A DNA stretch of 64,000 bases, from positions 3,003,567 through 3,067,566 of the forward strand of contig MU053629.1 in assembly GCA_013239625.1 (NCBI GenBank), read 5' to 3'. The notes beneath the pieces were generated by a model that was given only the letters and a program-made list of their open reading frames with translations, ran no database searches and was not told the origin of the DNA. Positions within the stretch are counted from its first letter, which is position 1, and the number at the start of each line of letters is the position of its first letter. The translations under genes were made by a program, and so were the position numbers. Source of the DNA: Lama guanicoe (Eukaryota). Positions 18,113 through 62,493 of the stretch are shown one piece after another.

Positions 18113-62493
<44,381 letters not shown>

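Follow-up and report, generated by a model that had tools for sequence, protein, structure and literature searches.

A 27-nt DENND4A microexon annotated from sharks to mammals, likely optional through a weak GA/GU 5′ splice site

Described splicing systems closest to the microexon

Amongst described systems, those closest to the 27-nt cassette microexon of DENND4A considered here are the conserved vertebrate microexons of 3–27 nt (PMC8187152; PMC8911335), the cassette exons with GA/GU donors that respond to branaplam (PMC10904865), and exon 11 of RAI14, which, according to PMC13004596, QKI represses and SF1 activates via ACUAAC branch sites. The locus was studied in a window of 64,000 nt from Lama guanicoe, the term window denoting this whole stretch of DNA. 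With the first class, the DENND4A exon shares length, preservation of frame, conservation, a short upstream intron and position in a loop; unlike that class, it possesses a weak donor and no acceptor-proximal UGC. Branaplam stabilises U1 on A-bulged donors, and with the cassette exons of the NAGA/GU type in PMC10904865, for example the HTT pseudoexon (CAGA/GUAAGG), the DENND4A donor shares A at −1, G at −2 and A at −3, as well as strong inclusion under branaplam and no listing under risdiplam in Table S5 of PMC10325915. Differences from this class are also evident: position +3 is G, where most branaplam targets in PMC10325915 carry A, and, unlike decay-inducing pseudoexons of the HTT type, the DENND4A microexon is conserved, in frame and coding. 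With RAI14 exon 11 it has in common an ACUAAC at branch-point distance upstream, but there is one such element rather than two, its conservation is unsupported, and no QKI response was found in the searchable supplements of PMC13004596.

Direct counterparts of the exon exist in other mammals. The mouse Dennd4a protein NP_001156389.1 includes the same exon, with the same nine residues, whilst ape records read SQSRTLLFE as against SQNRTLLFE in the window. In human, an exon at chr15:65665198-65665225 (GRCh38, minus strand), given in Table S6 of PMC10325915, has the same length of 27 nt, the same flanking exons of 163 and 118 nt and the same downstream intron of 476 nt, with an upstream intron of 119 nt versus 122 nt in the window. 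Overall, at a probability of about 0.72, we read the locus as an annotated cassette exon whose two forms are both present from sharks to mammals, which is likely optional by way of a weak GA/GU donor, and whose nine conserved added residues, predicted to lie in a linker of the C-terminal domain, would likely tune a binding contact. The exon is thus already known, being both annotated and measured, and what is added here is its age, its weak and conserved donor, and a drug handle; in open-access main texts, no discussion of its conservation depth, regulation or function was found.

Exon structure, occurrence and age

Within the window, 23 exons placed by homologue-guided mapping make up three quarters of the DENND4A coding region, counted from its 3′ end (18113..62495, minus strand, with the stop codon at 18115-18113). 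The reading frame was checked on 22 of them, namely those having two defined ends or ending at the stop. The microexon lies at 24115..24141 on the minus strand, its acceptor sequence reading ...tttttgtcttacag with the last base at 24142, and its donor gtgagt following 24115; the splice sites are canonical AG/GT and the length falls within the 3–27 nt microexon class of PMC8187152. In phase 1-1, it adds S-QNRTLLFE between WNAH, with which the upstream exon ends (24264..24381, minus strand, 118 nt, phase 0-1), and TQKY, with which the downstream exon starts (23476..23638, minus strand, 163 nt, phase 1-2). The upstream intron measures 122 nt (24263-24142), as the sequence-only reading had stated, and the downstream intron 476 nt. 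Across the 22 mapped exons the joined frame harbours no stop either with the microexon (1385 codons) or without it (1376 codons), bearing out the earlier description of a stop-free, in-frame, phase 1-1 exon of 27 nt. The exon stretch is single-copy in the genome.

A pattern of splice motifs is not, by itself, uncommon: 16 pseudo-candidates no longer than 51 nt were found within the DENND4A introns of the window, which is the observation that favours reading 24115..24141 as a chance intronic look-alike that is never spliced in. Set against this are the carriers amongst homologues, the curated mouse record, the row in a human splicing table and the isoforms found across lineages, as well as the fact that, of four frame-preserving candidates of at least 21 nt, 24115..24141 alone matches the fetched proteins (130 of 621, as opposed to at most one for each of the others). 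For the orthologues the look-alike reading is already refuted; for the window itself its chance is negligible, and 24115..24141 is virtually certain to be a real alternative exon of DENND4A, although its inclusion in Lama guanicoe itself would follow from orthology. As a separate observation, two further frame-preserving look-alikes on the minus strand, at 27780-27754 (27 nt) and 34770-34750 (21 nt), are without support amongst the 621 fetched proteins.

A homologue search with the downstream exon returned 354 matches, and the counts that follow cover the 120 listed. Within these, 74 contain the insert, 38 skip it, seven are intron read-throughs and one is an odd model, a protein search for the inserted peptide having been proposed earlier as a check. 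The carriers display 68 copies of SQNRTLLFE, three of SQSRTLLFE (apes) and three of SQNRPLLFE (mole rat), and include elephant, armadillo, bats, carnivores, horse, rodents and primates. In mouse, the curated RefSeq protein was found on 469 contigs and possesses the insert at residues 1740-1748. The exon had been called hidden and absent from the reference protein; neither description stands, given its presence in this mouse record, in many NCBI and UniRef models, and in quantified form in human cells. Absence does fit human, as EAW77746.1 (P0136), the sole human record intact across the junction, skips the exon. That the microexon belongs to the conserved C-terminal domain of DENND4A was also correct, and it is a real in-frame cassette with both isoforms in many species. 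Sequencing-run contigs are the sole source of 31 of the listed rows, of which 20 include the exon, seven skip it and four read through; many of these are full-length frames on contigs of 6–9 kb, and they presumably represent spliced RNA. Amongst individual gene models (P0109, P0216 and P0211), those of mole rat and godwit join the microexon straight to an exon lying further upstream, and human CRA_b skips the microexon along with the next two exons; these are probably prediction errors.

Beyond mammals, chicken has annotated records of the long form (P0387) and the short form (P0472), and a pit viper record includes the insert as SQNRTLVFE. Of the cluster members listed, the insert is present in 3 of 15 for turtles, 4 of 9 for coelacanth (as SLNCTLLFE) and 1 of 12 for gar (alligator gar, SLNCTLLIE). 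For cartilaginous fishes the corresponding values are 4/9 in chimaera, 7/15 in skates, 8/15 in carpet sharks, and 10/15 in both rays and mackerel sharks, with chimaera, skate, shark and ray inserts mostly reading SLNYTLLFE. Most of these isoforms from outside mammals are predicted (XP_ or Ensembl) models, and the single gar record is a genome-project annotation. The insert occurs in none of the 15 sturgeon and paddlefish members listed, in none of the 11 from the arowana group, and in none of the seven amphioxus members listed from a cluster of eight; the motif is likewise found in 0 of 71 aligned distant representatives, a set to which each 50 per cent cluster contributes one protein and which is weak evidence for absence. 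One arowana gene model (P0606) has an odd ...WNTY-PCFFTLLFRK... arrangement with TLLF at the insert position, perhaps a teleost remnant of the exon.

Since chicken, turtles, coelacanth, sharks, rays and chimaera each have annotated records with and without the exon, its age is likely that of the jawed vertebrates, amphibians and lamprey lying outside the sample, and it is likely specific to DENND4A. Conservation of the 27 nt had been put forward as a check on the exon; at the peptide level, the mean pairwise identity of the insert is 0.81 across 12 lineages, compared with 0.85 for the 30 residues before it and 0.50 for the 18-residue loop after it. Such high conservation may in part reflect splicing signals that overlap so short an exon.

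The weak donor, flanking signals and candidate regulators

The 5′ splice site GAGA/GTGAGT (24109..24118, minus strand) is the sole GA/GT amongst 22 donors of the window. It matches five of the nine positions of the donor consensus, which is the joint lowest value of the 22, and the earlier description of this donor as strong is therefore reversed. Evidence on its age comes from intron read-through peptides of other species, in which four of five contigs are compatible with GAGA/GTGAG: two of bird type and one of mammal type directly, and a further bird-type contig if TGA is read as W. This suggests, from translated intron sequence, that the weak donor is old. The fifth calls for a GC donor, the reptile-like read-through P0233 fitting no site other than GAGA/GCGAG, which is even weaker.

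With regard to drug response, the donor GAGA/GUGAGU fits the branaplam motif NAGA/GUNNNN, but fails the risdiplam motif ANGA/GUHDNN in having G at both −4 and +3 (motifs as given in PMC10904865), which predicts a response to branaplam without one to risdiplam, as is observed. The human exon is listed with a dPSI of −0.658 and an FDR of 0 in Table S6 of PMC10325915, which comprises exon-inclusion events overlapping differentially expressed genes, derived using rMATS from GM03813 fibroblasts at 40 nM branaplam. The sign is taken as control minus treated because other inclusion rows of the supplement are likewise negative and skipping rows positive; a rise of 0.658 in turn implies a baseline PSI of no more than 0.34 in human fibroblasts. 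In the risdiplam Table S5 of the same paper the human microexon is absent, though DENND4A is differentially expressed under risdiplam, and the exon presumably did not pass the filters of that table. The branaplam evidence is a single row from a single study (PMC10325915), with the human donor deduced from the end of the peptide and the drug response. A preprint (bioRxiv 10.1101/2025.08.21.671662) also names DENND4A as a GA/GU branaplam target, with the exon unspecified, and the searchable supplements of PMC13473598 contain no DENND4A rows.

For orthologues, then, both isoforms are present across lineages, and in human fibroblasts the exon is partially included and rises strongly with branaplam. 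In the mechanism that we propose, recognition of the A-bulged donor by U1 would be the limiting step for inclusion, and it is highly probable that splicing of the microexon is donor-limited. The short upstream intron, the long AG-free pyrimidine tract and a GU tract downstream may together help to define the exon, and trans factors would raise inclusion in some cell types, such that inclusion varies with cell type and species. That inclusion is regulated by cell type is somewhat favoured. There are several other accounts of regulation; together with the look-alike reading considered above, they do not all exclude the main reading.

One such account holds that the exon is included by default, so that most vertebrates would rely chiefly on the long form as their functional protein, and skipping would be a tolerated by-product of the weak donor rather than a switch. 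The mouse reference includes the exon, as do 20 of the 27 junction-spanning run-derived rows, and the strong conservation of the peptide is also in keeping with this. Yet skipping predominates in human fibroblasts, skipped forms are annotated in every exon-bearing lineage, and the weak donor appears to have been conserved rather than repaired. The 0/71 result for distant representatives points the same way, as from it the short form would be the ancestral working form. We regard leaky skipping of this kind as unlikely, and prefer inclusion that is optional through the donor.

The acceptor side comprises a polypyrimidine tract and AG at 24142..24170 (minus strand), with 16 pyrimidines in 20 positions, the next AG at −57, and no TGC within 20 nt. 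Upstream of this, candidate branch points at 24175..24191 (minus strand) consist of ACTAAC (−50), TAAC (−41) and CTGAC (−38), which can also be read as a QKI core and half-site; the ACTAAC is indeed at 24191-24186, where it had first been noted. In PMC13004596 and PMC8187152, upstream ACUAAC is linked to repression by QKI and to competition with SF1. QKI could sit on ACUAAC and on the UAAC half-site, covering the branch point, and compete with SF1, giving skipping in muscle, fibroblasts and glia, and raised inclusion in neurons. That both motifs overlap both branch candidates would suit such a model, as would the literature just cited and the low baseline inclusion in human fibroblasts. Against it, ACTAAY is found within 80 nt of 5 of the 21 other acceptors in the window, and ACTAAC is not encodable in the last 75 nt of any of the four informative read-throughs from other species (three bird-type, one mammal-type), although the selection of open read-throughs itself disfavours the frame that turns ACTAAC into a stop. 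Furthermore, the searchable part of the QKI/SF1 knock-down supplements of PMC13004596 holds no row for the microexon, the one match being a different DENND4A exon. Control by QKI is unlikely, and the donor remains the preferred site of limitation.

Downstream, a G/U-rich intronic tract at 23985..24060 (minus strand) is a candidate splicing enhancer. It displays 0.91 G+T against 0.52 ± 0.08, with none of 507 intronic tiles as high, although the tract was picked after inspection; the long GU-rich run reported at approximately 24060-23985 is hence real and of exceptional composition. TG/GT counts at the microexon are the highest amongst 22 donor-proximal regions, and the first 200 nt downstream hold 12 matches to TGT[GT] and four to GGTG/TGG[TG]G, which are motifs of the ESRP/CELF type. 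The composition of this tract supports a putative enhancer, and does not name a factor.

The possibility that this is a classical neural microexon, dependent on SRRM4 and included almost exclusively in neurons, is encouraged by several typical attributes: a length of 27 nt, preservation of frame, deep conservation, a trafficking gene, a short flanking intron and a surface-loop position. A UGC close to the acceptor is the rule for SRRM4-dependent neural microexons. Here, by contrast, the nearest TGC is at −53 and none occurs in −20..−1, the donor is weak where donors of the microexon class are strong in PMC8911335, and inclusion is frequent in run-derived contigs and present in the mouse reference. 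Nothing on SRRM3/4-dependent or neuron-specific inclusion of the microexon was found in open-access main texts. Such dependence is quite improbable, and the donor-limited reading with cell-type modulation is retained.

Other candidate influences were considered. RNA folding around the exon is not unusual (z of 0.08 over 291 nt; z of −1.40 over 106 nt, a value equalled or bettered in 20 of 200 shuffles), and a local hairpin pairing the acceptor with the branch region was set aside as not significant. PMC5991522 and PMC13003931 describe a DENND4A exon with an acceptor edited by ADAR; one cloning primer of PMC5991522 has no match within three mismatches in the window, so that the edited exon could not be linked to the microexon. 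PMC13408116, concerning hnRNP A1/A2B1, reports raised inclusion of a Dennd4a exon that is unspecified, and the searchable supplements of PMC13500670 and PMC12064062 have no row for the microexon.

Protein context, significance and further exons

The C-terminal domain was modelled for an isoform pair from tarsier, one including the insert (P0146, mean pLDDT 74.9) and one skipping it (P0137, 76.6). The fold and the helices on either side of the insert are the same in both models. In the longer, the insert (301-309) directly follows a helix (293-300) within a linker, with pLDDT below 50 at 305-314; the nine added residues are thus predicted to lie in a low-confidence linker or loop of the C-terminal domain. 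The insert adopts no confident structure in the model, and the models do not place it at an interface. For the C-terminal 430 residues there is no Pfam family and no PDB sequence match; a Foldseek search with the C-terminal domain gave no matches at an E-value of 0.001 or better, and VIA-align gave 0 of 48,161 at Z of at least 5, which, with a model of more than 400 residues, is weak evidence. In PMC12311110 this domain is described as mixed alpha/beta and functionally uncharacterised, with a predicted tight packing against the N-terminal MABP-DENN module, and with DENND4A and DENND4C treated as Retromer-bound RAB10 GEFs. The insert was also considered as a Retromer motif, and this was rejected: with equivalence to the motif in PMC12311110 assumed, the mouse protein has its sole DPL at residue 1168, a long way from the insert at 1740-1748.

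It is reasonably likely that the inserted peptide has a functional effect. As the weakest step of the proposed mechanism, the hydrophobic TLLF core could act as a short interaction motif, which might shift packing of the C-terminal domain against the MABP-DENN module of the same protein or against a partner, thereby tuning Rab10 GEF behaviour; an effect specifically by way of a DENN-docking contact is unlikely. The most far-reaching version is more improbable still, namely that a microexon of jawed-vertebrate age has a donor kept weak on purpose, that TLLF switches packing between the C-terminal domain and DENN to yield two Rab10 GEFs of differing activity across cell types, and that branaplam is both a handle to flip this switch and an unrecognised means by which the drug alters Rab10/Retromer traffic.

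Hundreds of conserved microexons share the profile of this one, which makes it a subject of follow-up for a trafficking or splicing laboratory rather than a surprise. Nonetheless, an insert of nine residues retained since sharks, within a domain of undescribed function and with a drug-induced shift of approximately 66 PSI points, offers a convenient handle on control of DENND4 GEFs, and GA/GU splice modulators may have the microexon as an off-target.

Further observations concern other DENND4A exons of the window. The exon at 45797-45666 (minus strand, 132 nt), flanked by exons of 142 and 117 nt, has the geometry of a DENND4A cassette of 129/132 nt at chr15:65700543-65700672/5 that, in Table S7 of PMC10325915, is skipped more under risdiplam; its acceptor, ttaag/CAG, is a tandem NAGNAG, which explains the two lengths of 129 and 132 nt. 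Homologue pairs often differ by 43 residues (approximately 1865 versus 1908 aa), suggesting another cassette of 129-nt size in DENND4A, and the exon at 42525-42397 (minus strand) is 129 nt long and of phase 0-0. Lastly, the final coding exon (18249-18116, minus strand) carries DVFDKEY, a minority variant present in 23 of the 432 fetched proteins with the motif, most of which have DAFD.
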